From: Candidatus Woesearchaeota archaeon
GTDB taxonomy: Archaea; Nanobdellota; Nanobdellia; Pacearchaeales; JAHJTO01
Assembly: GCA_964540065.1 (NCBI GenBank)
Contig: CAZIKY010000001.1
Location: 14,798-78,797 of the forward strand
DNA length: 64,000 nucleotides
Direction of reading: 5' to 3'
The position numbers were made by a program, and so were the translations under genes. Positions 3,055-30,582 of this stretch are shown in pieces. The notes beneath the pieces are model-generated. The model made no database searches. It had not been told where the DNA came from and worked only from the letters and a program-made list of their open reading frames with translations. Within the stretch, counting starts at the first letter, position 1; each line of letters begins with the position of its first letter.

Positions 3055-3876
3055 TTACAGTTTTATTCTTTCCCGGTATAAAGCTGCCCTATTAGCCTCT
3101 TCCTTTGTTCTTCCCGGAGAAAACAATCCTTTTATCTTTGAAAGAAGTCTAGGATCGTTATATCTCTCTCCTATCAGGCAAGCAGCTAATTTCTTGTATT
3201 CTACACTGAGGTCATGAGAAGGATCATATAAAGAAGCAGGAGTTGCGTTTGCAAGCGCCTCAAGAACCTTTTCACTTTCTGGAAGAACTGCAAGCACGGG
3301 AACTTCTGAAAGATCTTCTACATCTTTAAGAGTCAGCTCAAAATTTTTACCCCTTCTTTTGTTCAAAACTAAGCCAGTTATAGGAGTATTCTTCTGCTTA
3401 GCAAGTTTTATCGCTCTAACCGTGCAGCTAAGAGTAGGATAATCCGGAGAGGTAACGACAAGAAGTTCATCGCTTGCAAGCATTGTCGCAAGTATCTCTG
3501 AATTTAAAGTCGGCGAAGAATCTATCAAAACAACATCATAATTCTTTTTGAAATCTCTCAATTTTTTCTTCAAAGCATAAACATCTACACTTCCGGAAGA
3601 GACTAAAGATCCCGGCATAAAATGGAAGCCTGCATCGTGAATATATGTGGCCTTTTCGGGCGCAGCCTTGCCCAAGATAACATCATGCACAGTAGATTTT
3701 TCTGGCTTAACAACCCCCAGATGCAATCCAAGGTTCGGTGCAGAAAAATTAGCATCAACAATTAGAACTTTTTTATTAAATTGATTAGCGAGAACTGCCC
3801 CGAGATTTGTAGTGACAGTCGTCTTTCCGACACCGCCTTTAATTGAAATCACTCCGATAGTCTTCGACATTTTCAC
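3055..3876 (-). CDS. ParA/MinD-family P-loop ATPase (deviant Walker A)
   Basis: N-terminus ...IGVISIKGGVGKTTVTTNLGAVLA... (KGGxGKT deviant Walker A), followed by a Walker B-like 'VVLIDSSP'. No CxxC motif, so not an Mrp/ApbC Fe-S carrier. Last gene of the minus-strand cluster that starts with the giant surface-protein gene. Confidence 0.85.
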   Translation of the reverse strand: MKMSKTIGVISIKGGVGKTTVTTNLGAVLANQFNKKVLIVDANFSAPNLGLHLGVVKPEKSTVHDVILGKAAPEKATYIHDAGFHFMPGSLVSSGSVDVYALKKKLRDFKKNYDVVLIDSSPTLNSEILATMLASDELLVVTSPDYPTLSCTVRAIKLAKQKNTPITGLVLNKRRGKNFELTLKDVEDLSEVPVLAVLPESEKVLEALANATPASLYDPSHDLSVEYKKLAACLIGERYNDPRLLSKIKGLFSPGRTKEEANRAALYRERIKL

Positions 3877-3881
3877 CTTCT

Positions 3882-4781
3882 TTATTTGTAAACTTCTTTT
3901 ATTTCGCCGAGCATATAATGCCTGACTGAATTAGTTTTACTCTCCCCTTTCTTATCTAATTTATTGGGTTTTCCCTTTAATAAACCTTTCTCTTCACCGG
4001 GGACTTTCACCGACGGTGAAGGCTTAACAAAAGACAAAATTTTACTTGATCCGTTGGAGTCCATTTTCTTGGCCCCGATTACAAAATTCTTTTCATTTTG
4101 CACTTTTTTGGAAGGCTTATCATAAAGGTCTTTTATTTCTCCAGTTAATTTCTGTGAAGTCGTTTCTTTGTGGGGCTTTATCACTTTCTCAACCTTTGAG
4201 GCAATTTCCATAACCTTAGAAGGCTGAACCGAGGGCTGCTCAGATTTCTGCCTGCTTCTAAGATATTTCTCCTTTTCTTCTTGAACGATCGCAGAAACCC
4301 CTTTGTATTTGTCGGCTGCTAACCATCCTCTCCTTGGAATTGGAACTCCCTCATTCCTCTGTGAAAATGAAACGACTTGGCTCCTTTCACGAGGTTTCAT
4401 TATAGGATCCATTATAGCTGGACCGATTCCTCCAGAATGCTTGACAATCTTAAGCTCTCCAGAAGGCCCTTTTCGCAGATAGCTTCCAAGCTCCTTGTCA
4501 AATTTGCTTCTTTTCTTAAATGCGCCTAAAAGAGACAGAACTTCATTTTTAGAGCGATTTTTGACTCTCGAAATCTTATCTGAGAAAGGCTCTTCGACCC
4601 TAGTTCCGGGCATTATTCCGGAAATCTTTGAATGATTAGACCTCATAAGGTCTTTTTTAATTTCTTTATGTAATGGAGTTACATTTCTGACAACTTTTAA
4701 TTCTCTTCTAACTTCTCTTGGAATAAAATCTGCCTCCCCCTTTTTATTGGAAAAAAGTTTTCCTATAAATGAATTACTCAC
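3882..4781 (-). CDS. soluble basic protein paralogous to the cytoplasmic tail of the giant surface protein
   Basis: 299 aa, no TM. Segment LGSYLRKGPSGELKIVKHSGGIGPAIMDPIMKPRERSQVVSFSQRNEGVPIPRRGWLAADKYKG and C-terminal ...HYMLGEIKEVYK closely match residues near the C-terminus of the 6856-aa protein (...YLKKGPSGELKIVKPSGGIGPAIMDPIMKPRERSQIVSFSQRNEGVPIPRRGWFAADKYKG...EWMLGELKGVYD). DNA 4380-4470 is ~90% identical to 5880-5970. Confidence 0.7.
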   Translation of the reverse strand: MSNSFIGKLFSNKKGEADFIPREVRRELKVVRNVTPLHKEIKKDLMRSNHSKISGIMPGTRVEEPFSDKISRVKNRSKNEVLSLLGAFKKRSKFDKELGSYLRKGPSGELKIVKHSGGIGPAIMDPIMKPRERSQVVSFSQRNEGVPIPRRGWLAADKYKGVSAIVQEEKEKYLRSRQKSEQPSVQPSKVMEIASKVEKVIKPHKETTSQKLTGEIKDLYDKPSKKVQNEKNFVIGAKKMDSNGSSKILSFVKPSPSVKVPGEEKGLLKGKPNKLDKKGESKTNSVRHYMLGEIKEVYK

Positions 4782-4865
4782 AATCTTTCACCTCTTTCTA
4801 ATGTTCTTAGACCTAATGTAAATGAAGGATTTAGGGATATTAAAACCTTATTCTTTTCATGAAAA

Positions 4866-4882
4866 CTATGAATATTCATAGG
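4866..4882. promoter_or_regulatory. palindromic putative operator CTATGAATATTCATAGG upstream of gene 3882..4781
   Basis: Perfect 16-bp palindrome CTATGAATATTCATAG. Related copies sit upstream of two wHTH genes at 5159-5176 and 26306-26319. Confidence 0.5.
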
Positions 4883-4947
4883 AATATACCTCTTAATATT
4901 ATTACCTGTTAAAACCAATTCTGCATTCAGCAATAACCCTTTACCCA

Positions 4948-5142
4948 TCATCTCACAACCCATAAATTCACCCCTGCTTTTTTCATTCTTGTGACTTTTT
5001 CATCAAGTGCGAGCTCTAAAAGATGCTTTTCTGCAGTGTTCCATGAAACGCCAAATTCCTCGGCAATCTCGCTGGTTGTCACTACTTTAACCTTTCCCAC
5101 TTTCTCTATTATTTTCTTTTTTAGTTCACTAATTTGTACCAT
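4948..5142 (-). CDS. small winged-helix DNA-binding protein (paralog 1 of 3)
   Basis: 64 aa MVQISELKKKIIEKVGKVKVVTTSEIAEEFGVSWNTAEKHLLELALDEKVTRMKKAGVNLWVVR; helix-turn-helix plus wing pattern. ~75-80% identical to the proteins at 5227..5424 and 26043..26240. Preceded by a palindrome at 5159-5176. Confidence 0.7.
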   Translation of the reverse strand: MVQISELKKKIIEKVGKVKVVTTSEIAEEFGVSWNTAEKHLLELALDEKVTRMKKAGVNLWVVR

Positions 5143-5158
5143 CTTTTTTGTGAATAAA

Positions 5159-5176
5159 CCTATGAATACTCATAGG
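5159..5176. promoter_or_regulatory. palindromic putative operator CCTATGAATACTCATAGG upstream of wHTH gene 4948..5142
   Basis: Near-perfect palindrome (one central mismatch) in the 84-bp spacer between the two wHTH genes. Confidence 0.5.
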
Positions 5177-5226
5177 ACTATTAATATTAATATAACTATT
5201 AGCAAAACCTAAAATTCCATGCATTT

Positions 5227-5424
5227 TCATTTTACTACCCATAAATTCACCCCTGCTTTTTTCATCCTAGTAATTTTGCTATCAAGTGTAAGTTCAAGCA
5301 AATGCTTCTCTGCAGTGTTCCATGAAACCTTCAATTCTTCAGCGATTTCGCTTGTAGTGACTACTTTGGTCTTTTCAACAAGCTTCATTATTTCCTTTTT
5401 GAAATCACGGCTGTCCATTTTCAT
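5227..5424 (-). CDS. small winged-helix DNA-binding protein (paralog 2 of 3), start overlapping the stop of the giant gene
   Basis: 65 aa MKMDSRDFKKEIMKLVEKTKVVTTSEIAEELKVSWNTAEKHLLELTLDSKITRMKKAGVNLWVVK. ATG (5424-5422 on the minus strand) overlaps the TAA (5426-5424) of the 6856-aa ORF, giving TAATG. Confidence 0.7.
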   Translation of the reverse strand: MKMDSRDFKKEIMKLVEKTKVVTTSEIAEELKVSWNTAEKHLLELTLDSKITRMKKAGVNLWVVK

Positions 5425-8400
5425 TAATCATAAACTCCTTTTAGCTCTCCAAGCATCCACTCCCTTACCGCAGCAGAATTATCCCCTATGCTTTTTTTCT
5501 GAGATTCTTTTTTCTTTGATACCATTTTTACATTAGATTTAGCCGAACCGCTAAAGACCGATCTAATCCTAGTTGCATCTTTAGCCCCAATTACTGCTCT
5601 CTCGACTGGCTTGGAATAAACTGCTTTAATTTCCCCTGCAGTTTTATTAAGAATCGAAACTGGCGCAGGCAATATCTTTTCCAGTCTGAAAGCTTTGTCA
5701 ACTTTAGCTGCAAGTCCACTTATTTTTGACGGCTGCACTGAAAGCTGGATAGCCCGCTCTCTGCTCTTAAGATATCTCTCTCTTTCTTCCCGCACAAGAG
5801 AAGATATTCCCTTATACTTGTCGGCAGCAAACCATCCTCTCCTTGGAATTGGAACTCCCTCATTCCTCTGAGAGAATGAAACGATCTGGCTCCTTTCACG
5901 AGGTTTCATTATAGGATCCATTATTGCCGGACCGATTCCTCCAGAGGGCTTGACAATCTTAAGCTCTCCAGAAGGCCCTTTCTTCAGATATCTTTCAAGA
6001 TCTTTGTCAAGTTTGCTTCTGTCCTTCAAGCCATCCCACAACGAGGTGAATTCTTTCCTGATTCTGGCTCCGCTTCTTCTGAACTTTTCAGAAACCGGAT
6101 CTTCAACAAATGAAGGTTCAACTATAGGAGATAACTTAGAATCTTGCTTCTTGAAGTTAAACTTAAACTCTTTCTCAAACAAAGGAGCTTTCCTTTCAGA
6201 GATCTTTGAAGGGCTTAAAGGTTTATGAGGTTTAATCTTTATTTCTCTGTACTCTTCATTTCTTGAACTGAAGATCTTCTCCCCGATCTCGACAATAGAA
6301 GAAATTATCTGTGTCCTCTTCCTTGAATTCAGATAGCTGTTCAACTCTTTATCAAGATTATTATTTCTCGTACTTAAACTGTAAGGTACTTTTTGCTTTA
6401 CCAGAGACTTATTGCTTAGGCTCTTCTGCAGCTGTTCAAGCTCAAATTGAGATTTGGCAGAGGATAAATCAAGCCATTTTTCAGAGAATTTAGGTTTATT
6501 CTGCTCATTTTTCAAAGGAAGTTCATTAACATGGACATAAGAGCCTGAGCCCAACTGTCCTCTCTCGCCATAGAAAACCGGCCTCTTTACTCTCTCATGA
6601 TAATAATTTGTTTTAAAAGAAATAGTTCTGCTTATAGACTCTCCGAGTCTGTCGAAGTAGTTCTTGAAAGGAACATCATAGTGCTTTCTAATAACCCCGA
6701 AGATCCAGCCGTCAGTCCTTTCTAGATACCTTGTTATTACAAATTCGTCATGCTTTCTTCTTCTCCAAGCTATGATAAGCAGCAAGACTAAGAACAATAT
6801 CAATGCAGTCCACAAAATCATCTCCCAAGGAATCTCTTTCTTCTCCACTACTGGGGCAGGTGTAGGAGTCATACAGACTCCATTCTCGCAGTTCTGGCTC
6901 TTGCAGTCAGAATTAAGGTAGCATCTCTTTCCATTATCGCATCTTTCAGAGCAAGTCTTTCCTCCGCAGTCTACATCGCTTTCATCCTGGTTCAGCTTAT
7001 TATCTTTGCAGAAGCTGACTGGTGCAGCAACTTCACATTCTTCATCCAAGGCAGGCCTGTCATCAGTGGTTCCGCAATTATTCTGGTCACTGCAGAACCT
7101 GCTTCTCAATCCTCCAGAGCATGCGCTCCATTCAGTGCAGATCCAGTCTTCTTCACAAACCGGAGTCACAACAGCGCCTCCGCCACCGCCTCCTCCTCCG
7201 CCACCGGAAGGTGCAGGCGCTGCAGGAAGCACAACTGAGAAAGTTACATTCTTGCTGTCAAGATTTCCGGCACTGTCATTTGCAAATGCAATTAGGGTTG
7301 TCGAACCTTCAGGGAAGGTCACATTTACAGGAGAGGTGTAAGTGATATTTGTTCCATTGAAATTATAGAAAATAGTATTCACCCCAGATCCATTGTCCGT
7401 AGCAGACAGATTAACAAGGATAGACTGGCTGCTGTAAGTGATATTCTCCGGACTGTGTATTGTCACATTTGGTTTTATCGTATCCACTGTAAACACTCTG
7501 GTCGCATTTCCGCTGTTTCCTGCAGTATCGTTAACTGTAGCATTGAGAGTTATCGAACCTTCAGGGAAGGTTACAAAGTGTGTAGTGTTATAAACTGCAA
7601 AAGTTCCATTCCAATTATATCTTACAGTGTCAACAGTTCCATTAGGCCCATTAGTAGTGGTTAGGTTCACAAGGATTGTCGCATTATTGTATGTTTTGTT
7701 CTCAGGGCTTACAATCGTAACTGTAGGAGCAGTCACATCAACAGTAAAGGTCACAGTTGCAGATCCTAAATTGCCTACAGTATCATTAGCATAAGCCTTC
7801 AAAGTTATAGATCCTTCAGTAAAGTTAACTATTACTGGAGAGGTGTAAGTAGTGTTTGTGCCGTTCCAATCAAAGAATATCGTAGAAACTCCTGCTCCAG
7901 AATCTGTAGCGCTTATATTTACTAAAAGAGTCCGATTATTGAAAGTTGCTGTTGTAGGATGTATTATTGTAACAGTTGGTGCGGCCGAGTCTACAAAGAA
8001 CAAAATACTGCTTTCATTTGTATTTCCTGAAGTATCATTTGCAATTACAGTCAGGTTATAAGTTCCATTCTGAGGTGGCAATGTGAAAGTGGTATTGTAC
8101 TTATTGCCTGCAACGTTAGTTAAGTTAAACTCATTCACCGCATTGTCTGGATATCTTATTCTTGCGATTACATTATTAACTGCGATATTGTCCGTTACAT
8201 TTGCAGCCACTTCTATCACAGAAGATAAAGCGAAGAAGCTTCCATTCAAAGGCCTAAGATCAAAGACTACTGGCTTCGTTCCATCAGAAGCATTGAAGAA
8301 AGTTGTTTCACTGTTATTAACACTTCCACTAGAGTCATTCGCGAAGAAGCTTACATTGTATCTTCCGAGAAGCTCAGGTATTGCGAATGAAGCATTGAAC

Positions 8401-11400
8401 TTTCCGCTGCTTGTTGCTGGACCGCTTACATTTGTTAAGGTCAGCTGCTGCACAGTCCCATTAGGGAAAGTTACATTTGCTCTTACAGAGCTTACATTTG
8501 CAAATACAGTTGTAACATTAGCGGCGATTTCAATAACATTCGAAGTATTGAAGCTGCTGTTAGCTACTGGTCTAAGATTTTCAACCTTAGGGATTACACT
8601 TCCGAAAGTTACTGTAAGCTGGGCAAAGTCTGCTCCGAAAGCAGCATCATTTCCGTTAGTTGTAATGGTCACATTTATCTTATACCTTATTTGCACAAGT
8701 TTAGTTGTGCTATTTACGAAATCAACAAAAGATCCTCCTAAAGAGGTTGTAGCATTACCCTCATTGATAATGCTTCCATTATATGTTCCAACCTGCTGGA
8801 AAGCTCCTGCTGTCCAGTTGAATAACTCTATAGCAGTTGAATTCTCAGCTACTCCTCCTGGAGCGGATCCTCCGCATGTGAAAGCCCCAGTAGAATCATC
8901 ATTCAAGCAGTGCTCAAGCAAGAAAGTCATGTTTGTTATATCCGAAGCTGAAGCCCCACTAAGCACCCCGCTTAAATTATATGTCAGGTTAAGATGTGTA
9001 TTAAGATCGTTCTGAGCTCCAGCGCCATTGTTCCTTCTTACTGCAAAGTAAACTTGGTCATTTGCCTGTGTAGCAGCAAATGTATTTACCACTTCACTAT
9101 GTCCCTCTCCGAAAGGATCATAAGATCCTTGATCAGGGGTTCCATTTGTAGGATTTTGCTCGGAGAATCCAGGATCTGTAGCATTGTTAATCGTTATAGT
9201 GTAAGTTTCTCCAGGAGTCAAGTTTCTGACAAAGGAATATCCATCATTGCATGTAGTTGTAGAGATTGTAAAGTTCTCACACTTGTAAAGCACAGTTCCG
9301 TTCGCTACTGCAGTCAGGTTTATTGAAGTGAAGTTCAATCCAGAAGGGTCTATGCCGTATGTCTGGGCAAACAAGCTTGAATCGTTCGTCCTGTTTGCAA
9401 TCTTAATCAAAGCGTAAGGTGAAGTTTCAGAGTACCCAGAGACAATTAAAGAGGAGATAGTCTGATTTGTAAGATTTACTGTTACTGTAAGTATTCCAGA
9501 GGAATTCAAGATGACAACTTGAGCGTTATTTATAGAATCTCCGGCAGGATTTACTACATCAAACGTTCTGTTGCCTTCAACGACTCTTGTGAATATAACT
9601 GTAGTTGCATTATTGACATTATTCAAAGTGTCATTTGCTATAATCCTTACAAGATAAGTGCCCTTCTGATCTAGATCCGAGAAAGTGGTGTTGTATGATG
9701 CACTTATATTGCTTGTCTGAAGATCTGTTGTGCTTCCATTAGGGAAAGTGATTCTAACTAGCACAGTATCTACTCCCGTGCTATCTGTTACCAAAGCAGT
9801 CACGCCAACAGTATCGTTCACCCTAAATGTGCTTCCATTTGTTGGGGAAGTGATTGTAACTGAAGGGTTGTTCAACTCACTTACAATAAAGTGCGTCTTT
9901 TCAGTGTTATTCAAATTATTGCTCGTATCATTTGCAACAATAGTCACATTATACCTTCCTTGAAGATCACTAGGCACGCTAAAGCTGGCATTAAACTTGT
10001 TTCCAGAAGTATTGTTTAGAGTCAAAGTGTTTGTAGCTCCATCTGGATAGGTTATTGTGGCTAAAACAGAACTTACAGCAACATTATCGGTAACATTGGC
10101 TGCAATTTCTATAGTTGAACCTAAATTGAATGTTGAGCCATTCAATGGAACTAAACCGGTAACATTTGGATTGATTACATCTAATGCATTGAAGAAAGTA
10201 GTTGAAGTGCTATTTGCATTATTATTTGTATCATTTGCAATGTAAGTGATATTGTATCTTCCAATCAAACTACTTGGCACAACAAAAGATGTATTGAATT
10301 TGTTGCCAGTAACATTTGTCAAAGTTAATTGCTGCACAGTTCCATTAGGCAAGGTTATATTCACAATCACAGTAACTGGGCCGTCATTATCTGTAGCATT
10401 GGCTGCGATTTCTATAGTTTGAGATAAGTTGAAGCCGCTGCCATTTGTAGGCACTAATCCGAATACAGAAGGCTTGATTGTATCTCCAACAATGAAAGAG
10501 GTAGTTGTAACATTGACATTGTTGTTAGTATCATTAACAATGAAAGTTAAGTTGTATTGTCCTTGAGGTGTGCTTGGTATTGTGAAGCTTGTATTAAACT
10601 TGTCTCCAGTTACATTTGTCAAAGTCAACTGCTGGACAGTTCCGTTAGGTAATGTCACATTCACAAGCACTGTTCCAAGAACGCCATTGTCAGTTGCATT
10701 TACAGCAATCTCAATTACATCAGAGACATTGAAGCTGGATCCATTAGAAGGTATAAATCCAAAGACTGCGGGCTTGGCAGTATCGTTTGCTATAAAGAAT
10801 GTTGTTCCAGTGCCGTTCACGTTTCCAAAGGAGTCGTTTGCTACAAAAGTTAAGTTATATCTTCCCTGAAGAGCGTTAGGTATTATAAAGGAAGTGTTGA
10901 ACTTATCTCCCGTAGTATTTGTCAAAGTAAGAACTTGGACAGTTCCATTAGGCAAAGTCAAGTTGGCCTTCACAGAATTTATCTGTCCGCTGTTTGTAAC
11001 ATTAGCCGATATTTCAACCACATCCGAAACATTGAATTGCGTTCCATTAACGGGCCTTAAGTCGAACACGCTTAAAGGAGTAGTATCTACATTTATTGTT
11101 ACATTTTCGGGGTTATTTACATTTCCGGAAGTGTCATTAACGAATACGCTCACAACAGTTGTTCCTTCAGGGAAGGTTACAAACACTGGAGAAGTGTAAG
11201 TCTGATTTGCAGTTCCGTTAAAGAACAATATTGTACTGACTTGGAAGTTATCTGTAGCAGTTATGTTCACCAGGATAGTCGCATTAGTGAAATTTCCCGC
11301 AGATGGGCTGTTAATTGTTACTTGAGGCCTTGTAATGTCATTGACAGTAAAGTTAGTCTTCTCACTAGAGTTAACATTCCCAAATGTATCGTTAGCGATT

Positions 11401-23400: not shown

Positions 23401-25994
23401 AAAGTCAAGACATTTATTGTCCCGTTAGGCAGGGTAATATTTACAAAGACTGCACCTATGACCCCGTTATCAGAAACATTTGCTGCAATTTCAATAACGC
23501 TTGCAACATTAAATTCCGTTCCATTTACAGGCTTGGCATCAAACACTGAAGGGAAAATATTGTCTACCGCTACAAAGATGATCCTTTCAGTGGAATTAAG
23601 ATTATTGTTCGAGTCGTTAGCAATAATTGTAACGTTGTAGTTTCCTTTTAGGGCATTAGGAATAGTGAAGCTTGTATTGAATTTATTATTTGGACTGCTG
23701 TGATTTGCGAGCGCGCTGACATTGTTCAATGTAAGCAATTGAACAGTTCCATTAGGAAAAGTTACATTTGCACGAACTGCACCGAGCACTCCATTATCGC
23801 TAACATTAGCTGCAATTTCAATGGTCTCTGAAACGTTGAACTGAGTTCCATTTAATGGCCTCAAACCAATTACTCTCGGCCTTATCGTATCGTTAGCGAT
23901 AAAGAAAGTAGTATTTGTTCCAATGTTATTCAAGGTATCATTCGCTATGAAAGAGATATTATATCTTCCTTGCAAACCTGAAGGAACAGTAAATGTTGTG
24001 TTAAACTTACCAGAGCCGCTAAGTGCACTGGTATTAGTCAAGGTCAGCTGCTGAACAGTTCCGTTGGGGAAAGTAACGTTTGCAAGAACCGTTTGTATAA
24101 TTAGGTCTGTAGTAACGTTCGCTGCTATCTCAATAGTGTCAGAAACATTAAACTGAACATTACTTACGGGCCTTAAATCAAAGACTCGCATATTTACTTG
24201 CTCAGTCCTCGTAATCCCAACCCTCATTTGTTTTATCTGGGCAGTCCCGCCATCAAGCGCTCTGAACCTTATCTTAATTGTATGGGCACTCGCATTCAAA
24301 GTTAGGTTTTGTATCGAAGCAAAACTAAGCCATTCTGATCCATCAAGAGGATGCATTGAGATATTGCCATAGGTAACGCCATCAACCTCAAGTACCGCCC
24401 TTATACCATTTGCTTGAGGGGCAGCGGTGGTCTGCCTTATATCTGCTGTTCCAAATATAAGATACTCTCCAGTAAATGTAGGAGTAAATACTGTGGTCAT
24501 TGCATCTTGGAGAGTAGTAGTATTTGTAGTGGACTGGATGTCACTGGTTTGATTATTTGCAAAAATGAACTGATCTTGCTGCCTTATAGCAGTTATTCTC
24601 GTCCGGTTTATTTTCCCGGTATCTCCCGAATTTGCAAAACCCTGCATAGTCAGATTATGGGGCGAAGCAGAAAGGTTCAAAGTTACGCTTGTAAAGTAAA
24701 CTTTTTTGTTGGTTGCAGCTTTTTTGGCATATGTAAAGTTGCTGTATTCTGTTCCATCTACTAAGAATCTAGCATTAGCAAGATCATTAAGTCCATCTGG
24801 AGCAAGCTCGGCAGAGGCCATTATAAGATAAGTTCCGGCAGATGGAGGAGTGAAAGTTAAAGTTTGTACATCTGCAAAAGATCCCACATTTAACGTCTGG
24901 GTAGTATCAGTAGAATTGTAGAAAACCTCATCAGATTTTAATGCAATGAGTCTTGCATTTCTTATAAGTGCTGCAACTGATCCGCTTCCAGATTTCCACT
25001 GTATTGTTGCAGTATGACTGCCAGCGCTTAAGTTTACAGTTTTATGAACTGAGAAAGATTCAAAACCTGTGGCGACAATTGGCCTGTAGATCATCTCTCC
25101 TTCATCAACTCCATCAAGAAGCAGTCTAGCAGAAACTTCGGTATTGGTTGCATCCTCTCTTATTTCTGAGCTTACGATTATTGTGTAATTGCCTGCTTCA
25201 GAGGCAGTGAAGGTCAAAACAGTTTTATTTATATAAGTCGTCGAAGTAGTTGAATTCTCTCCCACGCTTTCTCCGAACTCTCCGAAACCCGGGTCATCCG
25301 GAGTTAAAAGGAAAGTGTATTGCTGTCCAGGAACCAAGCCTGTCTTAAACAAGGTCCAATTTCCAAAGCATGTTTGGGTTGTAAAGTTCCACGCCTTACA
25401 TTTATGCAATTCTGTTCCAACTGCAGTTACGGTAACAGTTGCATTGTCAAAATCAAGCTGAGTCGGGTCTATTGCATAAACCCTTGAAAATCCATTAGTT
25501 GGAGCAACATCATCTATTCCAAGGGCAATTGATCTGCTGACATTTGAAGTCCTCACATTGTAAAGCACAATCCGATTTACTGGACCGCTTGATGGAACGA
25601 TCTCTATTCCATCAGAAGTTTCAGTTATCTGCATAGGAATTTCATTGCCTGCGCTGTCCCTTATTCTAAGCAATTCGCTCAAGGCCCTTACAGTTTCCCT
25701 CAGCTCCTCGATAGACTCTTTCAGAGATTCTGTGCTCTCCCTAAGCCCTTCAATTTCTGCGTTTGTTCTATTGCTTTCAGCAATTTGCGTAACAACTTTC
25801 CCGGTCACGGGGCTTCCAAAATAGCTGAACTCCGGATTTATGTATCCGAGGATCAACAGCGTGAGCAGGCTGGCCAAGAATGCACCGATAAGAATTGCTC
25901 CCACCAGCCTGCTTCCGCTAAGATTTTTGCCCTCTTTTTGTCCGGAATATGAATTTCTTTTTTCTCTTCTGTTATGTTTTCTGTGTCTTGACAT
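5424..25994 (-). CDS. giant membrane-anchored surface protein (6856 aa); putative glycosylated adhesin / S-layer-like protein with a cytoplasmic tail
   Basis: Uninterrupted 20.6-kb ORF. N-terminal basic segment plus hydrophobic anchor (LVGAILIGAFLASLLTLLILG), then a ~600-aa unique region. More than 50 tandem ~96-aa repeats (consensus ...PSVFDLRPVNGTxFNVSDVIEIAANVTDNGVISxVxANVTLPNGTVQxLTLTNVSGDKFNTSFTIPNxLQGxYNITFIANDTNNNVNSTETTFFIANDT...), dense in N-x-S/T sequons. A central ~515-aa Cys-containing unique region and a second repeat type near the C-terminus (VTIxSPxN.TY....LVN...TDNGSGV.TIFYN.NGTN.TYTSPV.VTFPEGS). Then a Pro/Ala stretch, G10 linker, 6-Cys module (CEEDWICTEWSACSGGLRSRFCSDQNNCGT...C...C), TM helix (ILWTALILFLVLLLIIAW, ~6764-6826), and a ~450-aa Lys-rich cytoplasmic tail. 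Confidence 0.9.
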   Translation of the reverse strand: MSRHRKHNRREKRNSYSGQKEGKNLSGSRLVGAILIGAFLASLLTLLILGYINPEFSYFGSPVTGKVVTQIAESNRTNAEIEGLRESTESLKESIEELRETVRALSELLRIRDSAGNEIPMQITETSDGIEIVPSSGPVNRIVLYNVRTSNVSRSIALGIDDVAPTNGFSRVYAIDPTQLDFDNATVTVTAVGTELHKCKAWNFTTQTCFGNWTLFKTGLVPGQQYTFLLTPDDPGFGEFGESVGENSTTSTTYINKTVLTFTASEAGNYTIIVSSEIREDATNTEVSARLLLDGVDEGEMIYRPIVATGFESFSVHKTVNLSAGSHTATIQWKSGSGSVAALIRNARLIALKSDEVFYNSTDTTQTLNVGSFADVQTLTFTPPSAGTYLIMASAELAPDGLNDLANARFLVDGTEYSNFTYAKKAATNKKVYFTSVTLNLSASPHNLTMQGFANSGDTGKINRTRITAIRQQDQFIFANNQTSDIQSTTNTTTLQDAMTTVFTPTFTGEYLIFGTADIRQTTAAPQANGIRAVLEVDGVTYGNISMHPLDGSEWLSFASIQNLTLNASAHTIKIRFRALDGGTAQIKQMRVGITRTEQVNMRVFDLRPVSNVQFNVSDTIEIAANVTTDLIIQTVLANVTFPNGTVQQLTLTNTSALSGSGKFNTTFTVPSGLQGRYNISFIANDTLNNIGTNTTFFIANDTIRPRVIGLRPLNGTQFNVSETIEIAANVSDNGVLGAVRANVTFPNGTVQLLTLNNVSALANHSSPNNKFNTSFTIPNALKGNYNVTIIANDSNNNLNSTERIIFVAVDNIFPSVFDAKPVNGTEFNVASVIEIAANVSDNGVIGAVFVNITLPNGTINVLTLNNVSALVSHNSTTNKFNNSFTLYNITGRYNVTFVANDSSNNVNSTTTTFFIANDVTIPSVFDLRPVNNTSFNTSDVIEIAANVTDDVAVSAVRANITFPNGTVQQLTLTNVSGLLSLGGKFNTSFNIPNDLQGTYNITFIANDSSNSFNTTERTNFTVGDTINPRVFDFKPNGTPFNVSDTIEIAANVTDNGVISALLANITFPNGTSQLLTLANISGPLSNNTRFNTSFTLPNTPQGRYNITFIANDTNNNVNNTETTFFIANDTVRPSVFDLIPVAGTSFEVLSTIEIAANVTDNGVIQTVRALVQYPDGAINTLTLSNAVGDKYNTSFLVPNLIGRYNVTIVANDTNGNTNNTEKTHFFSGDFDPPSVIGLVPANGTTFNLLETLEIAANVTDDLSAVSQVLANVTLPNGTVQTLTLTNTSTTKYNTSFTIPIGLIGQYTVRIIANDTRGNVNSTETTTFIGADTQIPLVSSLVPVEDTDFGLTDTIEIAANVTDNGVLSFVSVTIVYPDGAVNTLVLNNSVGDKFNASFTIPNILGRYNLTFFANDTDDNVNNTETTFFNAGDTRNPSVTLLSPQNGTSFNVSDVVEIAANVTDNLDLQTVRVNLTLPNGTVNVLTLSQFNSTDKFNVSFTIPNELQGQYNITFIANDSTGNTNATTITNFIAGDTVNPRVVSVHPPEGLNVMASQVIEIAANVTDNGVIDTVLANISLPNGTVNVLTLTNVSGSLIGGGKFNTSFTVPSLVGQYNITFIANDTNNNVNSTTTTFLLQGDATPPNVIIVTPVNGTQFNVSDTIEIAANVTDNGAVAAVSVNVTFPNGTVQNLTLSNVGNSKYNRSFTLPNTPQGRYNITFIATDTSDNVNSTETTFFIANDTVRPAVFGLKPLNGTSFTVGDTIEIAANVTDNGVISTVIANITFPNGTAELLTLANVTGNKFNASFTAPGEGGFYTVRFLANDTNNNLNNTEIIIFEVTDNESPLVFSLIPSAGTNFLTNATIEIAANITDLSSISANVTVTYPDGATITLSLVNPNGDKFNTSFTIPNIEGRYNLSYFAQDTIGNINNTETTFFIAGDAFAPLVINATPTNGTVFNVSDVVEISANVTDSDSNVSFVSANLTLPNGTVNVLTLTNVSGPLANGGKFNTSFTIPNNLQGRYNITFIANDTRNNVNSTVTTFFIANDTIRPSVASLVPPNSSAFPSLSVIEIAANVTDNGVIDKVLAKIDYPDGASNTLTLVSVGGDKFNVSFTIPSVTGRYNVTFIANDTNNNVNNTETTFFIGGDTVRPLVFDLRPVSGFNASNLSVIEISANVTDNFEINTVLANVTLPNGTINVLTLNQVTGTDKFNQSFSIPNLKGTYNVTFIANDTSNNLNSTERTNFTFDGVSNATLSTDKTEYFQGTAATAEENPNFGVKVFILFEASYVNPINSAPIVDGTCNVTSNNSNSVTTLTFNSTTGNYSGSLDNTIEFDITNYTLSCSSPSMNAASSSTVASTFWLNYIINTGNIFFGGTDNNLSSSTTWLSKVAPNSTSYVNKTFNMSISPNQTDVNGLRIFFCGSNTNVPCSFLRNFNMQGIVTMRANLSASANNVCKPKLCYHLSTSNLEDTYELCGEPSGSLTTTPTLFEQNATLDGVTIGKTNFLSMHIHCDADSSLSSTTNVSVNLFYNYSDQEVNLEIHHPEPLNVITEIIENKQESFNLTIGPDQTLNVTVNHTILLNNTSANSGRINLFQALEVLGRFGQRVIANKTRVYNSTGGFWASDNVSLMPLENLTVFTGNVINYRTEFIGGSSAINNTARVEYQNALIDNETFTLNETTVKRWRVDLETIFVQTGSIRNITVFTNYSTYLPEGDEEARFTVNFTNSSGTFDLTNDTVVNTTLKTLTFPPISASLVNFTVEATDVVAPRLSGLVPANNSSFTSSATIEIAANLTEQFSGVDSVSANITLPNGTVQVLTLTNVSGPLINGGKFNTSFTLPSGLEGTYSARFIANDTAGNVNSTETTSFNVADTTSPLVFDFRPVSNSSFNVSDTIEVAVNVTDNVAISKVLANVTLPNGTVQVLNLTNVLGDKFNTSFTLPNTPQGQYNITYIANDTANNVNSTETTFFVAGDTIKPEVFDVRPVNGSQFDVADVIEISANVTDNGVISAVVANLTLPNGTLQTLTLANVSGDKFNASFTIPDLAGRYNLTYIANDTNNNVNSSVTSFFEVNDTSAPQVSGFIPSAGTNFTSLTSIEVAANVTDNAAVSFVSATVTYPDGATVDLTLVNAAGNKYNASLSIPNIGGRYNVSFFANDTSNNINNTETTFFEVGDVFAPSIIITSPSDGALFNVSDVIEISANVSDGNSNLSAVIANVTFPNGTVQQLTLTNVSAITNHSAANKFNVSFTIPNALQGRYNITFIANDTLNNLGTNTTFFTANDTIRPSVAALVPPNGTTFGSLDVIEIAANVTDNGVISTVRAQIKYPNGATNTLTLTNVGGDKFNTSFTVPDIDGRFNVTFIANDTNNNVNNTETTFFIGGDQARPSVLDIKPVNGTAFNVSDVVEISANVTDDFAVSAVKANVTLPNGTVQVLNLTNVLGDKFNASFTIPQALQGRYNITFIANDSSNNLNSTETTFFIANDTVKPAAFGAIPAAGTSFNSSDVIEIAVNATDNGVISSVIANLTLSNGTSQLLTLTSVGGDKFNVSFTIPNTPQGQYNLTFLVNDTNNNLNSSITTNFIVGDTINPAVFGAVPANGTSFNVSDVIEIAVNATDNGVLGTVLVNATLPNGTVQQLTLTNVTGDKFNTSFTIPSTPQGQYNLTFIANDTNNNVNSSTTTTFIVGDTIRPAVFELLPTNGSSFNTSDIIEVSANVTDNGVISAVIANVTLPNGTVNVLTLSQISGTDKFNTSFTIPVLQGTYNVTIIANDTNNNVNSSEKTFFTVADTLVPAVSGVIPANGTSFNVSDTIEIGVNVTDNVAVSSVTANVTLPNGTVNVLTLSLANGSRYNVSFTIPNDLQGQYNVTFIANDSNNNVNSTVVTVFTVGDTINPAVFDSRPINGSSFNIADIVEIAANITDNGVISAAIVNVTLPNGTVQQLTLTNATGDKFNVSFTVPNLAGRYNLTYIANDTNNNVNSSVTSFFNANDTLAPRVFSLIPVNGSHFAATSVIEIAANVTDNVAVSTVSVTVTYPDGAFEEFALVNAGGDKYNASFTIPDFGGRYNVSFFANDSSNNVNNTERTFFNVSDIFGPSIDIVSPNAGATFNVSDVVEIAANISDLSSNISAVLANVTFPNGTVQQLTLTNVSAITNHSAANKFNVSFTIPNTPQGRYNLTFIANDTKNNVNSSVTTFFIANDTIKPSVFGFIPPNDTTFPTLVSIEIATNVTDNGVVDTVKAQLKYPNGATNNLVLTNVGGDKYNTSFSIPNIAGRYNVTFIANDTNNNVNNTETTFFIGGDTTKPLVVGLVPVAGTQFNASDTVELAANVTDNFGVSSVRANVTFPNGTVQQLNLSLATGSKYNASFTLPNTPQGRYNITFIANDTSNNVNSTETTFFISNDTVRPAVFGAVPANGTSFNASDVIEIAINATDNGVISSAIANITFSNGTSQLVTLASVVGDKFNSSFTIPNTPQGQYNLTFLVNDTNGNLNSTTITTFIVGDTINPAVSGLLPVNGSVFNTSQVVEIAANVTDNGVIDAVLANVTLPNGTVNVLTLSQVGSTPKFNNSFIVPSGIQGTYNITYIANDTNNNVNSTARTSFIGGDSEKPSVSGLIPVANSTFSVAQNIEIAANVTDNIAVSDVRVNLTLPNGTLQVLTLINVSGPLANGGKFNTSFSIPNLPGTYNITFTANDTTNNVNSTSTTFFVLANEVNPNVTIVSPASGNFTNATLLVNITAVDDNAVENVLFFNGTANQTYASPVFVTFPQGTTVMRVYANDTFGNLNDTESVTIFIDSVPPSVTGVASTKASINQTQETTIVATVSDATTSVDKVIAQFTLPNGTVQNQTMALSGATYTTIFATSSSNVPGVYNVTIIANDTFGNVNSSEKTNFTVNDITRPQVTINSPSAGNFTNATILVNITATDNFQVSTILFFNGTANQTYTSPVFVTFPEGTTVVSVFVNDTSGNVNNPENVTINVDTTPLSVFDLRPVNGTQFNVSDVVEISANVTNSGQINSVKANLTLPNGTVQVLTLTNTTGDKFNTSFIIPNALQGRYNLTFVANDSFGNVNGTGTTFFIANDTAKPAVFGFIPSNGSSFNVSDVIEIAVNATDNGVLGTVLVNVTLPNGTVQQLTLTNVTGDKFNTSFTIPSTPQGQYNLTFIVNDTNNNVNVTTTSFIVGDTIKPSVFGLVPTNGSGFNLSQTIEIAANATDNDGPVTVIVNITLPNGTVQQLTLTNVTGNKFNTSFVVPSSLIGRYNITYIANDTNNNANSTSTTFFNALDVINPNVTGLVPLNGSTFNLGSTIEIAANVTDNVAVSSVLATITYPDGATNTLTLNNTSGNKFNASFSVPSDLQGRYNVTIVANDTSNNLNNTEKTHFIVSELNNPSVTITSPTNGSTFRVNDTVGVTALVTDSTGVDTVLVRITFPNGSTTDLQTSNISASYNTTFSDLDQKGTYLVRIIANDTLNNVNNATTVIFTRVVEGNRTFDVVNPAGDSINNAQVVILNSSGILTVTVNLTNQTISSLIVSGYSETSPYALIKIANRTNDSSLFAQTYGIDPSGLNFTSINLTAVANGTVLYKCENFTISTTTCNDGYSFVRNLTPGETYTITINNATDPGFSEQNPTNGTPDQGSYDPFGEGHSEVVNTFAATQANDQVYFAVRRNNGAGAQNDLNTHLNLTYNLSGVLSGASASDITNMTFLLEHCLNDDSTGAFTCGGSAPGGVAENSTAIELFNWTAGAFQQVGTYNGSIINEGNATTSLGGSFVDFVNSTTKLVQIRYKINVTITTNGNDAAFGADFAQLTVTFGSVIPKVENLRPVANSSFNTSNVIEIAANVTTVFANVSSVRANVTFPNGTVQQLTLTNVSGPATSSGKFNASFAIPELLGRYNVSFFANDSSGSVNNSETTFFNASDGTKPVVFDLRPLNGSFFALSSVIEVAANVTDNIAVNNVIARIRYPDNAVNEFNLTNVAGNKYNTTFTLPPQNGTYNLTVIANDTSGNTNESSILFFVDSAAPTVTIIHPTTATFNNRTLLVNISATDSGAGVSTIFFDWNGTNTTYTSPVIVNFTEGSITLKAYANDTVGNLGSATVTFTVDVTAPTVTIVSPENKTYNNATILVNLTTTNGPNGTVDTVRYNWNGTFAVYNTTHFVTFPEGSITLNATVNDTAGNSGNATRVFTVDTIKPNVTIHSPENITYSSQSILVNLSATDNGSGVNTIFYNFNGTNITYTSPVNVTFPEGSTTLIAFANDSAGNLDSKNVTFSVVLPAAPAPSGGGGGGGGGGAVVTPVCEEDWICTEWSACSGGLRSRFCSDQNNCGTTDDRPALDEECEVAAPVSFCKDNKLNQDESDVDCGGKTCSERCDNGKRCYLNSDCKSQNCENGVCMTPTPAPVVEKKEIPWEMILWTALILFLVLLLIIAWRRRKHDEFVITRYLERTDGWIFGVIRKHYDVPFKNYFDRLGESISRTISFKTNYYHERVKRPVFYGERGQLGSGSYVHVNELPLKNEQNKPKFSEKWLDLSSAKSQFELEQLQKSLSNKSLVKQKVPYSLSTRNNNLDKELNSYLNSRKRTQIISSIVEIGEKIFSSRNEEYREIKIKPHKPLSPSKISERKAPLFEKEFKFNFKKQDSKLSPIVEPSFVEDPVSEKFRRSGARIRKEFTSLWDGLKDRSKLDKDLERYLKKGPSGELKIVKPSGGIGPAIMDPIMKPRERSQIVSFSQRNEGVPIPRRGWFAADKYKGISSLVREERERYLKSRERAIQLSVQPSKISGLAAKVDKAFRLEKILPAPVSILNKTAGEIKAVYSKPVERAVIGAKDATRIRSVFSGSAKSNVKMVSKKKESQKKSIGDNSAAVREWMLGELKGVYD
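7175..7206 (-). repeat. GC-rich GGN codon run encoding a Gly10 linker
   Basis: gcctccgccaccgcctcctcctccgccaccgg in an AT-rich gene encodes ...PAPSGGGGGGGGGGAVV.... An equivalent tract occurs at 49748-49782 in gene 49231..50634. Confidence 0.9.
7990..17700 (-). repeat. tandem array 2 of ~288-bp coding repeats (about 34 Ig-like domain repeats) inside the giant gene
   Basis: Periodic protein repeats, and periodic antisense ORFs in the ORF track of the form ...VSFAMKVTLYLP.... Some copies are near-identical at the DNA level (e.g. 10560-10780 vs 15040-15260). Boundaries approximate. Confidence 0.8.
19250..24190 (-). repeat. tandem array 1 of ~288-bp coding repeats (about 17 Ig-like domain repeats) inside the giant gene
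   Basis: Same repeat family as array 2, separated from it by a ~1.5-kb unique region (about 17700-19250). Boundaries approximate. Confidence 0.75.
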
Positions 25995-26042
25995 TTTTCG
26001 CTTTCTTGTTTCTTGATTTTTGATTAAACTTTTTCTAAAAGT

Positions 26043-26240
26043 TTACTTTACAACCCAGAGATTCACCCCCGCTTTTTTCATTCTAACAATTTTTTGGTCG
26101 AGAGTTAGCTCAAGAAGGTGCTTTTCTGCAGTGTTCCAAGAAATCTTCAGTTCTTCAGCGATCTCGCTAGTAGTGACTACCTTAGTTTTCTCTACTAGCT
26201 TTATGATCTCCTTCTTGAGATCGATCCCTCTCTCTACCAC
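26043..26240 (-). CDS. small winged-helix DNA-binding protein (paralog 3 of 3), 48 bp upstream of the giant gene
   Basis: 65 aa MVERGIDLKKEIIKLVEKTKVVTTSEIAEELKISWNTAEKHLLELTLDQKIVRMKKAGVNLWVVK. Confidence 0.7.
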   Translation of the reverse strand: MVERGIDLKKEIIKLVEKTKVVTTSEIAEELKISWNTAEKHLLELTLDQKIVRMKKAGVNLWVVK

Positions 26241-26305
26241 TTTTCTTTATATCCAGTACTGAACACTCATTGTATGATACATTATAGTATACATTACATC
26301 ATACA

Positions 26306-26319
26306 TATGAATATTCATA
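26306..26319. promoter_or_regulatory. palindromic putative operator TATGAATATTCATA upstream of wHTH gene 26043..26240
   Basis: Same motif as 4866-4882, in the AT-rich divergent intergenic region 26241-26406. Confidence 0.5.
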
Positions 26320-26363
26320 AATAAGGCTAAAGGTAATATATAAACCTTACCTCATACATAAAT

Positions 26364-26428
26364 CGTGTACATATGTACATAAAGAAAATATTTAAATAGT
26401 GTACATGTGTACATAAATAATGTACACT
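26364..26428. promoter_or_regulatory. cluster of TGTACA palindromes (GTGTACATATGTACAT ... GTGTACATGTGTACAT ... TGTACACT) in a divergent promoter region
   Basis: Five TGTACA hexamers within 65 bp between the divergent genes 26043..26240 (-) and 26407..26913 (+). Confidence 0.4.
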
Positions 26429-26913
26429 ATAAAATGATTCCGAAAAAAGAGAGCACAATTGAGAGATCATTCGAAAAATGTCAAAAAACATTCGTTCAGA
26501 TAGACCGGGCAAGTTATTTGACCTATAAAGAAGAAGCTTTGAGCGATTTGGATTCTGCCTACAAAGAGCAAAAAGAAGGAAATGCTAAATGGGCCATAGT
26601 TAAAGCGTATCAAGCATTGTTTCTTCAATGTACTGCAGTCTTAGTAAAAAATTTAGGGATATATTCTAAAGATCATGGTTGCCTACTGATTGCGTTGCTG
26701 AAAAATAATCTTCTTAAAAAAGAAACATTTGAAAAAGTAAAAGGTCTTTTGAATAATAAGGCGACAATTTACGAAGAGATTGATCATATTAGAATTTTTA
26801 GGAACAAAGCATTATATTTCCCAAAGGTTCAAAGTAAAATTGGCCAAGAAGATACTGAAAAAACCCTCAATGAGATAAGAGAAATAATATCTTTAATTGG
26901 AGAGCATTTATGA
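26407..26913 (+). CDS. hypothetical alpha-helical protein; possible HEPN-like partner of the adjacent nucleotidyltransferase
   Basis: 168 aa; its stop overlaps the start of the next gene (ATGA at 26910). No clean Rx4-6H motif is visible, so the HEPN call is tentative. The true start may be the internal Met (MIPKKE...). Confidence 0.4.
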   Translation: MYINNVHYKMIPKKESTIERSFEKCQKTFVQIDRASYLTYKEEALSDLDSAYKEQKEGNAKWAIVKAYQALFLQCTAVLVKNLGIYSKDHGCLLIALLKNNLLKKETFEKVKGLLNNKATIYEEIDHIRIFRNKALYFPKVQSKIGQEDTEKTLNEIREIISLIGEHL

Positions 26914-27524
26914 TAAATCAACTTCTACCACTTTCAAGAAAGAAAATTGAAACTTTAAGATATATCTACGAAAACGACTCTGCACATCTTAGACGAATAT
27001 CCTTAGAACTTGAAATTCACCCATATCAATTGAAGAAGATAATAGACGAATTGGTTTCGAATAAAATTTTGGAGCAGAAAAAAGTAGGGAAAACGATCTT
27101 ACTAAGCCTCAACAGACTATCAGAGAATATAGAACAAGTGTTTTATCTAATAGAAGGTTATAAGCAAGAAAGTGAGAATAAGGTTCTTAAGAATATTATC
27201 AAAAATCTTTGGATTTTTTCAAAAAACTCGGAAATATTAAGTTGTTGCGTGTTTGGTTCTTATGCAAGGAGTGCAGAAACGAAAGAAAGTGATGTAGATG
27301 TATTGTTTATAGTGAAAAATAAAAACATTGGGCAGGATATTATAAAAAAAGTTTCTCAAATAGGAACCCTGCTCCATCTAAAATTTAGCCCCGTAATAAT
27401 GGATGAAAGGGAATTCTTAAGAGCAATTGAGATTAAGGAGCCCACTTTACTTACTATAATAAAACCTTCTCAAAGAATAATCACTTTTGGGATAGAATAT
27501 TTTCTGAAGCAAACTTATTTTTAA
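26910..27524 (+). CDS. winged-helix plus minimal nucleotidyltransferase (MNT) domain protein
   Basis: N-terminal HTH (LRRISLELEIHPYQLKKIIDELVSNKILEQKKVGKTILLSL), then the NTase signature 'CCVFGSYARSAETKESDVDVLFIV' (GS...D.D). Confidence 0.65.
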   Translation: MINQLLPLSRKKIETLRYIYENDSAHLRRISLELEIHPYQLKKIIDELVSNKILEQKKVGKTILLSLNRLSENIEQVFYLIEGYKQESENKVLKNIIKNLWIFSKNSEILSCCVFGSYARSAETKESDVDVLFIVKNKNIGQDIIKKVSQIGTLLHLKFSPVIMDEREFLRAIEIKEPTLLTIIKPSQRIITFGIEYFLKQTYF

Positions 27525-29542: not shown

Positions 29543-29585
29543 ATAAATAAAATTTAAGCAGTGTTTTTTAAAGTTTTAGGCCGAT

Positions 29586-30116: not shown

Positions 30117-30117
30117 A

Positions 30118-30495: not shown

Positions 30496-30582
30496 ATTAC
30501 ACCCTTTTGATTATAAATTTAAATAAATTCTCCTGCTATTTAAATTCTTCCAGACTCTGCCATTTTAGGTAAGAGAAGAGAA

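Follow-up and report, generated by a model that had tools for sequence, protein, structure and literature searches.

Conserved linkage between a MinD-like ATPase gene and genes for lysine-rich surface-protein tails in DPANN archaea

Is the MinD-like ATPase encoded close to a giant surface protein in a woesearchaeal genome a partner of the cytoplasmic tail of that protein, or only its neighbour? The question is raised by a gene cluster in a 64,000-nt stretch of DNA from Candidatus Woesearchaeota archaeon (the window; coordinates are positions in it unless another locus is named). The cluster lies entirely on the minus strand and is transcribed in the order wHTH3 (wHTH, winged helix-turn-helix), giant surface protein, wHTH2, wHTH1, free tail protein and ATPase. 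The giant gene (5424-25994) encodes 6856 aa with a signal/anchor, Ig-like repeats, a Cys-rich juxtamembrane module, a transmembrane (TM) helix and a cytoplasmic tail, and the free tail gene (3882-4781) encodes a soluble protein of 299 aa with a net charge of +32 and no TM helix. The deviant-Walker-A ATPase (3055-3876, 273 aa) starts 5 nt past the stop codon of the free tail gene. An earlier reading of this DNA (the original prediction) had proposed that a conserved domain of the tail serves as an adaptor for the ATPase.

Since the tail is unrecognisable as a family at the sensitivity of HMMER, the comparative evidence was taken from MinD-anchored loci, which were drawn from metagenomes as well as from genomes and single-cell genomes by way of their MinD orthologs. 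All 18 distinct loci with a MinD at least 56% identical (56-84%) have, upstream and on the same strand, a gene whose Lys-rich product ends in a shared motif. These loci are the window, L001, L002, L004, L005, L006, L008, L009, L010, L022/L051, L024-L027 and L047-L050, and the consensus of the terminal helix is basic-x-[WYF]-[ML]-x-x-[EK]-L-[KR]-[EG]-[VA]-[YH]. The conserved extreme C-terminus that had been noticed in the two tail copies of the window is thus found at the end of the MinD-upstream proteins of all these loci. It reads VREWMLGELKGVYD in the window giant (5427-5468, minus strand) and VRHYMLGEIKEVYK in the window free protein (3885-3926, minus strand, ending 5 nt before the MinD start), VKDWMKSELGEVYK in L001, IKEFMLSELKEVYN in L004, IKSYMLDKLKETYR in L005, KEYLLKKLKGAYKI in L006, HLLNKLKEVYK in L049, NILKHLKEVHKHD in L008 and LISQMQEVYRNE in L047. 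Two more short motifs are common to the tails of the near clade: P-x-x-V-M-E-L-x-x-K-V-E-K and, inside the tail, E-I-K-x-x-Y, which resembles the terminal one; the internal motifs of the window free protein are QPSKVMEIASKVEK (4176-4226, minus strand) and GEIKDLYDKP (4113-4145, minus strand). As judged from these alignments, the conserved element of the tail is the putative extreme C-terminal helix together with two short internal motifs.

The predicted linkage of tail and MinD therefore holds as a conserved gene pair in one MinD clade, in several flanking contexts and with frequent gene overlap. Stop and start codons overlap or are separated by at most 25 nt in the window, L004, L005, L008, L009, L022, L024, L026, L027, L047 and L048, and at least five different neighbourhoods lie downstream of the pair. 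The carrier of the motif differs widely: giant proteins of 2600 to more than 6800 aa, proteins of 1400-1600 aa with coiled-coil tails (L008, L009, L010), a 246-aa protein directly before MinD that consists only of signal peptide, Cys-rich stalk, TM helix and tail (L004), a protein of 146 aa made up of TM helix and tail (L047), a soluble one of 99 aa (L048) and free proteins of 286-299 aa (window, L022/L051). The extracellular part thus varies from none (L047, 146 aa) to more than 6000 aa while the pair persists. At the level of conserved gene linkage, as read from gene order, the tail-MinD system is real. In the marine contig L048 (7658-10008), the large linked protein is present as open reading frames (ORFs) of 470, 175 and 99 aa, either because the gene is truly split or because the assembly contains frameshifts; the 99-aa piece, which bears the motif, runs into the start of MinD.

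The specificity of the motif was controlled by running two patterns against the six-frame ORFs of all fetched loci and the window. Among 732 distinct ORFs with 100 aa or more, the strict pattern picked out 11, every one a MinD-upstream gene, and the loose one matched 19 of 3145 ORFs, 16 of which were MinD-upstream genes. At about 16 loci with a MinD of 49-55% identity, no motif was present within 10 kb, and the upstream position was taken by an RNase-Z-like gene, a tRNA or genes on the opposite strand.

Could inherited gene order alone account for the linkage? A housekeeping MinD would then simply lie beside a surface-protein locus, and the end helix would serve the surface protein, for example in membrane association or oligomerisation. 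The linked MinDs indeed form one clade in a neighbour-joining tree, and a block of KH, RIO, eIF-1A and MCM genes is conserved alongside in L001, L002, L004, L005 and L050; the window has an archaeal housekeeping block (eIF-1A, RIO kinase, KH protein) on the plus strand at its low-coordinate end. However, the adjacency has outlasted complete turnover of both flanks (L006, L008, L010, L047, L049), replacement of the ectodomain and the splitting-off of the tail as a gene of its own (L004, L047, L048, L051). Without exception, the tail piece is encoded on the strand of MinD and upstream of it, in most loci as the adjacent gene and often with overlapping stop and start codons, whereas a second giant ORF of the window (54634-63966) has no motif and is not beside MinD. 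Retention of the pair through such extensive rearrangement is good evidence of selection for pairing, and we consider inherited gene order an unlikely explanation.

The ATPase carries the Walker A sequence SIKGGVGKTT (residues 11-20; KGGVGKTT at 3817-3840, minus strand), which is of the deviant type with the signature lysine of the MinD/ParA superfamily. The Pfam models AAA_31, CbiA and ParA all scored above their cutoffs. The best NCBIfam match was minD_arch (TIGR01969; 161.1 bits, E 2.7e-47), which is below the curated cutoff of 201.75, while the bacterial MinD model reached 100 bits and the ParA model NF041546 58.6 bits (cutoff 180). The closest solved structure was 1G3Q, the MinD of P. furiosus (E 2.5e-32, residues 3-231), followed by 1ION and 1HYQ; the nearest relatives of known structure are thus the MinD proteins of P. 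furiosus, P. horikoshii and A. fulgidus, and bacterial MinD and FleN matched more weakly. More than 2700 MinD homologs were found, with 56-90% identity among records from Nanoarchaeota, Pacearchaeota and Woesearchaeota. The protein is also, as had been read from its sequence, free of the CxxC motif. An assignment to Mrp/NBP35/ApbC, of which the original prediction had named Mrp/NBP35 as one alternative, was rejected on this ground and on the model scores (MrpORP 57.9 bits, cutoff 450; ApbC 33.7 bits, cutoff 348). No MinC or MinE gene was present in the window cluster or in the related loci examined, and on this basis the ATPase is not placed in the bacterial Min system.

Two features of the ATPase bear on how it might work. 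The sequence VDANF (residues 40-44; 3745-3759, minus strand) lies at the Walker A' position and is present in all 34 aligned DPANN sequences, whether or not their MinD is linked to a tail, whereas the Thermococcus outgroup has VDGDL. Where the window protein has Asn43, E. coli MinD has its catalytic Asp40 (D40 in P. furiosus as well), which is the second Asp in the DxD of Walker A'. The change from Asp to Asn suggests that ATP hydrolysis is slow or depends on a partner throughout the DPANN family. Near the C-terminus, the stretch RLLSKIKGLF (residues 243-252; 3121-3150, minus strand) is amphipathic, resembles the membrane-targeting sequence (MTS) of bacterial MinD and is conserved in the linked MinD clade, and an extension of about 20 aa follows it; binding of the protein to the membrane is predicted from this stretch.

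A membrane-protein tail encoded directly before a MinD-fold protein is also the architecture of CapA-CapB, in which CapB, a MinD-like kinase, is completed and switched on by the 29 C-terminal residues of CapA (PMC2422856). By analogy with this pair and with Wzc, in which a cytoplasmic C-terminal peptide of a membrane protein is likewise paired with the P-loop protein of the next gene, the tail could activate the ATPase, which would in turn phosphorylate the motif Tyr in the manner of a tyrosine kinase of the bacterial type (BY-kinase). This Tyr is conserved in most motifs, and the BY-kinase models do match weakly. However, they reached only 33-40 bits against cutoffs of 108-230, the protein has D-A-N instead of DxD and a single Tyr near its C-terminus instead of a C-terminal tyrosine cluster, and the DTPP Walker B is missing, so that assignment as a BY-kinase was rejected. 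Moreover, the motif has His or Asn in place of Tyr in L008, L009, L024, L027 and L048, and the ATPase aligns over the complete MinD fold, so that a complementing peptide is not needed. A CapA/CapB-type mechanism appears extremely improbable to us.

Which part of the tail could serve as the adaptor? The original prediction had placed this function in a highly conserved core of about 70 aa shared by the giant tail and the free protein. The two copies of this core, which lie 1.5 kb apart, are indeed about 93% identical in DNA over some 185-210 nt, including an exact match of 34 nt found at just these two places in the window, while their flanks are near saturation. According to the Nei-Gojobori method, pS is 0.28, the synonymous divergence (dS) 0.35 and the nonsynonymous values (pN/dN) 0.02-0.05 within the core, against saturated dS and dN of 0.6-0.8 in the flanks; the patch lies at 5808-6020 in the giant tail and at 4299-4511 in the free tail gene (both minus strand). 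The synonymous sites of the core are far younger than their surroundings, a pattern characteristic of gene conversion, here between the two copies. The core has no counterpart in the orthologous giant tails (L001, L002, L050) or in P0123, the ortholog of the free protein, and AlphaFold2 modelled residues 112-159 of the free protein with a predicted local distance difference test (pLDDT) score below 50, which is weak evidence since the alignment was shallow. The high conservation thus holds between the two copies of this genome and not among orthologs, and we conclude from the substitution pattern that what looked like a conserved domain is a patch of local gene conversion. Its proposed role as a folded adaptor did not survive this comparison, given the missing orthologous counterparts and the predicted lack of structure. 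The possibility that the core is an RNA element was likewise dismissed, as it had no Rfam match and a folding z of 0.05.

The tail as a whole matched no named family, and the original prediction, too, had recognised none. The tail and the free protein gave no match above cutoff, and none below E 0.004, in Pfam, NCBIfam, PHROGs or PADLOC, and they fall into no Rfam family; a defence-system or phage origin of the tail was rejected for lack of PADLOC and PHROG matches. A profile hidden Markov model (HMM) search with the two window tail copies, as had been proposed, was run exhaustively against 1.8e9 proteins and returned 5 matches, of which 2 were the queries themselves and only 3 were non-self. 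Word-indexed homolog searches with the free protein and with an alignment of seven tails returned the query alone, because low-complexity words fill the candidate list.

In the window, the motif occurs in two proteins. The giant protein has only two hydrophobic segments, the N-terminal signal/anchor (residues 30-51; 25842-25907, minus strand) and the C-terminal TM helix WEMILWTALILFLVLLLIIAW (residues 6390-6410; 6765-6827, minus strand), which is followed by RRRKH in agreement with the positive-inside rule. The description of the giant as a protein with one C-terminal TM helix and a Lys-rich cytoplasmic tail was correct: the tail (5427-6764, minus strand) comprises 445 aa with 12.6% Lys and a net charge of +38, compared with -251 for the ectodomain, which consists of Big_7 and further Ig-like repeats. 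The Cys-rich juxtamembrane module (6870-7160, minus strand) precedes the TM helix.

The free protein contains 16.4% Lys and no hydrophobic segments. It is a paralog of the giant tail, as predicted (49% identity, E 2e-71); the homology does not extend over the entire tail and covers only its distal 290 or so of 445 residues, that is, about 60% of the tail (5427-6290). AlphaFold2, again on a shallow alignment, predicted helices at residues 66-104, 153-181, 187-201, 209-221 and 283-298, the last of these at the terminal motif, and most of the tail was modelled with low confidence.

An ortholog of the free protein is present at the same position in L022/L051, whose MinD is 84% identical to that of the window and its sister in the tree. 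The gene order there is giant, wHTH, free tail, MinD, and the free protein (P0123) has 286 aa, ends in WMVSELKEVYKE and has a stop codon that overlaps the MinD start by 1 nt. The L051 giant has kept the Cys-rich stalk and the TM helix, but its tail is merely about 190 aa long, stops almost exactly at the point where homology to the free protein starts and lacks the terminal motif. The free protein is thus the sole motif carrier in L051, which implies that the motif can function in trans and makes the free protein more likely a MinD partner in its own right than a decoy of the kind that the original prediction had considered in its competitor role.

The free gene is not found in L001, L002 and L050, whose giants have full tails. 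The simplest history would be that the motif was ancestrally on the giant tail, that the distal tail was duplicated as a free gene in the common ancestor of the window and L051, and that the copy in cis was then lost in L051. The leader that follows the wHTH gene in L051 (4212-4260 of that locus, ACTTTTTAGAAAAAAGTTTAATCAAAAATCAAGAAACAA...) is nearly identical to the leader between wHTH3 and the giant gene of the window (25995-26042), suggesting that the free tail gene is what is left of a second copy of the wHTH-giant unit after the loss of nearly its whole ORF.

Such an origin raises the question of whether the free protein is anything but the functionless and decaying leftover of a second giant gene that suffered an internal deletion. 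The matching leader would be expected in this case, and so would the absence of the free gene from L001, L002 and L050; with dN of 0.6-0.8 and saturated dS outside the patch, selection on the gene is not measurable. Decay is nonetheless hard to reconcile with an intact ORF preceded by a Shine-Dalgarno-like GAGGTGA in two organisms whose MinDs differ by 16%, with retention of the breakpoint at the N-terminus and of both the internal motifs and the C-terminal one, with the close spacing to MinD (a gap of 5 nt here, the 1-nt overlap in L022/L051) and with the role of the free protein as the only motif carrier of L051. That the free gene is a mere remnant seems quite unlikely.

How is the cluster regulated? 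The three paralogous genes for 64-65-aa wHTH proteins were located as described, bracketing the giant gene: wHTH1 at 4948-5142 (64 aa), wHTH2 at 5227-5424 (65 aa), whose ATG shares one base with the TAA of the giant gene (TAATG), and wHTH3 at 26043-26240 (65 aa), 48 nt 5' of the giant gene, all on the minus strand. The proteins are 71-83% identical to each other. With the DeoR-type HTH model PF08220 (gathering cutoff 21 bits), wHTH2 scored 24.1, wHTH3 23.8 and wHTH1, just below the cutoff, 20.9 bits. A 14-bp palindrome, TATGAATATTCATA, precedes three window genes: ATATGAATATTCATAA (26305-26320), with two mismatches to the perfect copy and a candidate operator, lies upstream of wHTH3 and the giant gene, CTATGAATACTCATAG (5160-5175) lies 18 nt upstream of wHTH1, and the perfect palindrome CTATGAATATTCATAG (4866-4881) lies 85 nt upstream of the free tail gene. 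These are the three best matches in the 64 kb, all of them intergenic and within the cluster, where 0.62 would be expected at up to three mismatches. The palindrome also precedes wHTH genes in L001 (9196, 9486), in L002/L003 (9087, 9411 and 9700 in L002) and in L051 (3962). Its position fits a candidate operator to which the wHTH proteins would bind, and supports autoregulating wHTH repressors or activators acting on three putative units, wHTH3-giant-wHTH2, wHTH1 and free tail-MinD. The conserved palindrome thus fits the transcriptional control proposed earlier; that the wHTH proteins act on it we infer.

The same elements could belong to a ParABS-like system for segregating or anchoring DNA, with the palindromes as centromere, the small DNA-binding proteins bound to them and the basic tail tethering the DNA or the complex to the membrane. 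Type Ib plasmid partition by ParF-ParG, in which a MinD-like ParA works with a small dimeric DNA-binding protein on iterated palindromic sites, would be a model for this, with the wHTH proteins as ParG-like adaptors. A wHTH gene accompanies the pair in the window, L001, L002, L008, L009, L048, L050 and L051, its place is taken by a ribbon-helix-helix (RHH) gene in L004 and probably L010 and by an AbrB-like gene in L047, and a MinD-like gene of Thermococcus is likewise preceded by a wHTH gene. In addition, the palindromes occur in arrays of 2-4, the tails have net charges of +32 to +38, and the PHROG match of the ATPase is to ParA-like partition proteins. But no small DNA-binding gene lies between or beside the pair in L005, L006 and L049, each palindrome is placed just upstream of a gene start in the manner of an operator, and the ATPase scores 161 bits as MinD against 58.6 as ParA and appears to have the MTS-like helix in place of known DNA-binding residues. 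Unlike ParF-ParG, the cluster is also chromosomal, lying among housekeeping genes, with an inconstant DNA-binding gene and an invariant tail and motif that have no ParF-ParG counterpart. We hold a DNA-segregating role to be very unlikely.

What, then, could the pair do? The reading we put forward, which we hold to be about as likely as not, is that an archaeal MinD-family ATPase and a Lys-rich, largely disordered tail polypeptide with a conserved amphipathic end helix form a two-gene module that couples MinD to adhesin tails. The tail polypeptide is mostly part of a giant Ig-repeat protein, and in other lineages it is carried by a small membrane stub (146-246 aa) or is free. ATP-bound MinD dimers would be held at the membrane by their own C-terminal amphipathic helix, and the terminal helix of the tail would dock on them much as peptides of MinE, MinC and ParB/ParG do on their ATPases. 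MinD would thereby capture, cluster or place the tail-bearing adhesin, or else the tail would tether and regulate MinD. In this genome the soluble duplicate of the distal tail, which has the same putative docking helix, would most likely be a MinD partner acting in trans, and the small wHTH proteins would autoregulate the cluster through the 14-bp palindrome. The analysis establishes that the genes are paired, that the motif is conserved, that the linkage is confined to one clade, and that the palindromes and the conversion patch exist. From sequence and gene context we deduce that MinD and tail would bind each other, what the helix would do, that the ATPase would sit at the membrane, that the adhesin would be positioned and that the wHTH proteins would regulate the cluster; a host-contact site could conceivably be the place where the adhesin is positioned.

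Several observations weigh against this coupling of MinD to adhesin tails. In L051 the motif is present only in trans, so that an adhesin need not be covalently coupled to it, and this weakens the simple version in which MinD positions the adhesin through the adhesin's own tail. The Asn that replaces the catalytic Asp in every DPANN MinD examined may mean that dynamic, ATP-driven patterning is weak or absent. Because the linked MinDs are monophyletic, the 18 of 18 loci represent one old acquisition that was retained, not 18 independent events, and some of the linkage may be inherited gene order, KH, RIO, eIF-1A and MCM being syntenic in several loci too. In L001, L002 and L050, wHTH genes intervene between the tail gene and MinD. 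Finally, the tail is of low complexity, and HMM searches retrieve almost no family.

A more far-reaching version of the proposal is that the terminal helix is the long-missing partner peptide of archaeal MinD, that DPANN of the Pacearchaeota/Woesearchaeota type use MinD to place or cluster host-attachment adhesins, that the soluble paralog is a regulator in trans, and that wHTH repressors set the expression of the cluster. We offer it tentatively, as a combination that is probably not correct in full.

The proposed coupling has parallels in several known systems. The bacterial MinCDE system shares with it a deviant-Walker-A ATPase whose amphipathic helix at the C-terminus targets the membrane (here predicted), an adjacent partner gene and a partner proposed to act through a short helix. 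In contrast to MinCDE, the cluster contains no MinC or MinE homologs, the place of the partner is taken by a disordered, Lys-rich tail, in most cases that of a membrane-anchored giant, the residue corresponding to E. coli D40 is Asn, and a role in division is not indicated. A MinD with a role at the cell surface is known from H. volcanii, where MinD4 positions archaella and chemosensory arrays; the same study reported MinD-like genes in Euryarchaeota only (bioRxiv 10.1101/2020.04.03.021790). MinD4 and MinD2 of this organism, both of which affect the motility machinery, are the only functionally studied archaeal MinDs. The present proteins resemble MinD4 in belonging to the archaeal MinD family, in having an MTS-like helix where MinD4 has an MTS, and in the proposed placement of surface machinery instead of division, but they are found in DPANN, and the MinD of the window is below the minD_arch cutoff. 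To our knowledge, archaeal MinDs, MinD4 and MinD2 included, have no known partner protein.

In the ParA cargo systems PpfA-TlpT, ParC-ParP, McdA-McdB and PomZ-PomXY, the ATPase recognises a short, charged, disordered peptide of the cargo or adaptor, and the genes are adjacent. The logic of an ATPase gene adjoining the gene of its cargo or adaptor is the same here, whereas the peptides of those systems are usually N-terminal and their matrix is the nucleoid; here it would be a C-terminal helix, with the membrane as the likely matrix and a giant adhesin as the would-be cargo. Repeat-rich surface proteins of several thousand residues, such as the nanohaloarchaeal SPEARE proteins, occur in DPANN symbionts and in those of the candidate phyla radiation (CPR), and are presumed to act in host contact. 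The giants described here resemble them in size, in their repeat-rich ectodomain and in belonging to ultra-small symbionts; we know of no description of a conserved cytoplasmic tail motif or of a MinD linkage for such proteins, and our search of the DPANN literature found no described link between MinD and a giant protein or a tail. The conserved MinD-tail pair gives a testable handle on the partners of archaeal MinD and on the organisation of the host-contact surface of DPANN, with a 14-residue helix, a 270-aa ATPase and a candidate 14-bp operator as its testable parts. It also extends the occurrence of MinD-family genes beyond Euryarchaeota, and these genes encode an unusual change from Asp to Asn at the catalytic position.

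Some further features of these loci were recorded. A double Cys-rich module (C-x-E-x-W-x-C-x-x-W-x-x-C … C-G-T, then N-Q-D-E-[ST]-D-V-D-C-G-G …) precedes the TM helix in giants of many lineages (6870-7160 in the window, L001, L002, 9252-9992 in L004, L005, L010, L051) and is also part of the stand-alone 246-aa protein of L004; it had no match in Pfam. The second very large ORF of the window (54634-63966, minus strand) encodes more than 3110 aa and possibly continues past the window end; it has a hydrophobic C-terminus (…GLWQRFIGLFY) and no Lys-rich tail, terminal motif or neighbouring MinD. In the Thermococcus metagenome-assembled genome L020, a gene for a MinD-like ATPase (9363-10196; 28% identical) is directly preceded by that of a 71-aa wHTH protein (9084-9299), which hints that small wHTH proteins may go together with MinD/ParA-like ATPases more broadly in Archaea. 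Divergently upstream of wHTH3, at 26407-27524 on the plus strand, lie genes for a HEPN-like protein (168 aa) and an HTH-nucleotidyltransferase (204 aa, MntA-like, PADLOC PDC-M05A); a HEPN-like/nucleotidyltransferase pair is found upstream of the wHTH gene in L008 as well (3654-4734), and the intergenic region shared with wHTH3 in the window (26241-26420) contains repeated ATGTACA(N)ATGTACAC elements. Further along the minus strand, at 28832-32091, the translations read as two KaiC/RecA-like ATPases, a receiver-domain protein and a HAMP histidine kinase.

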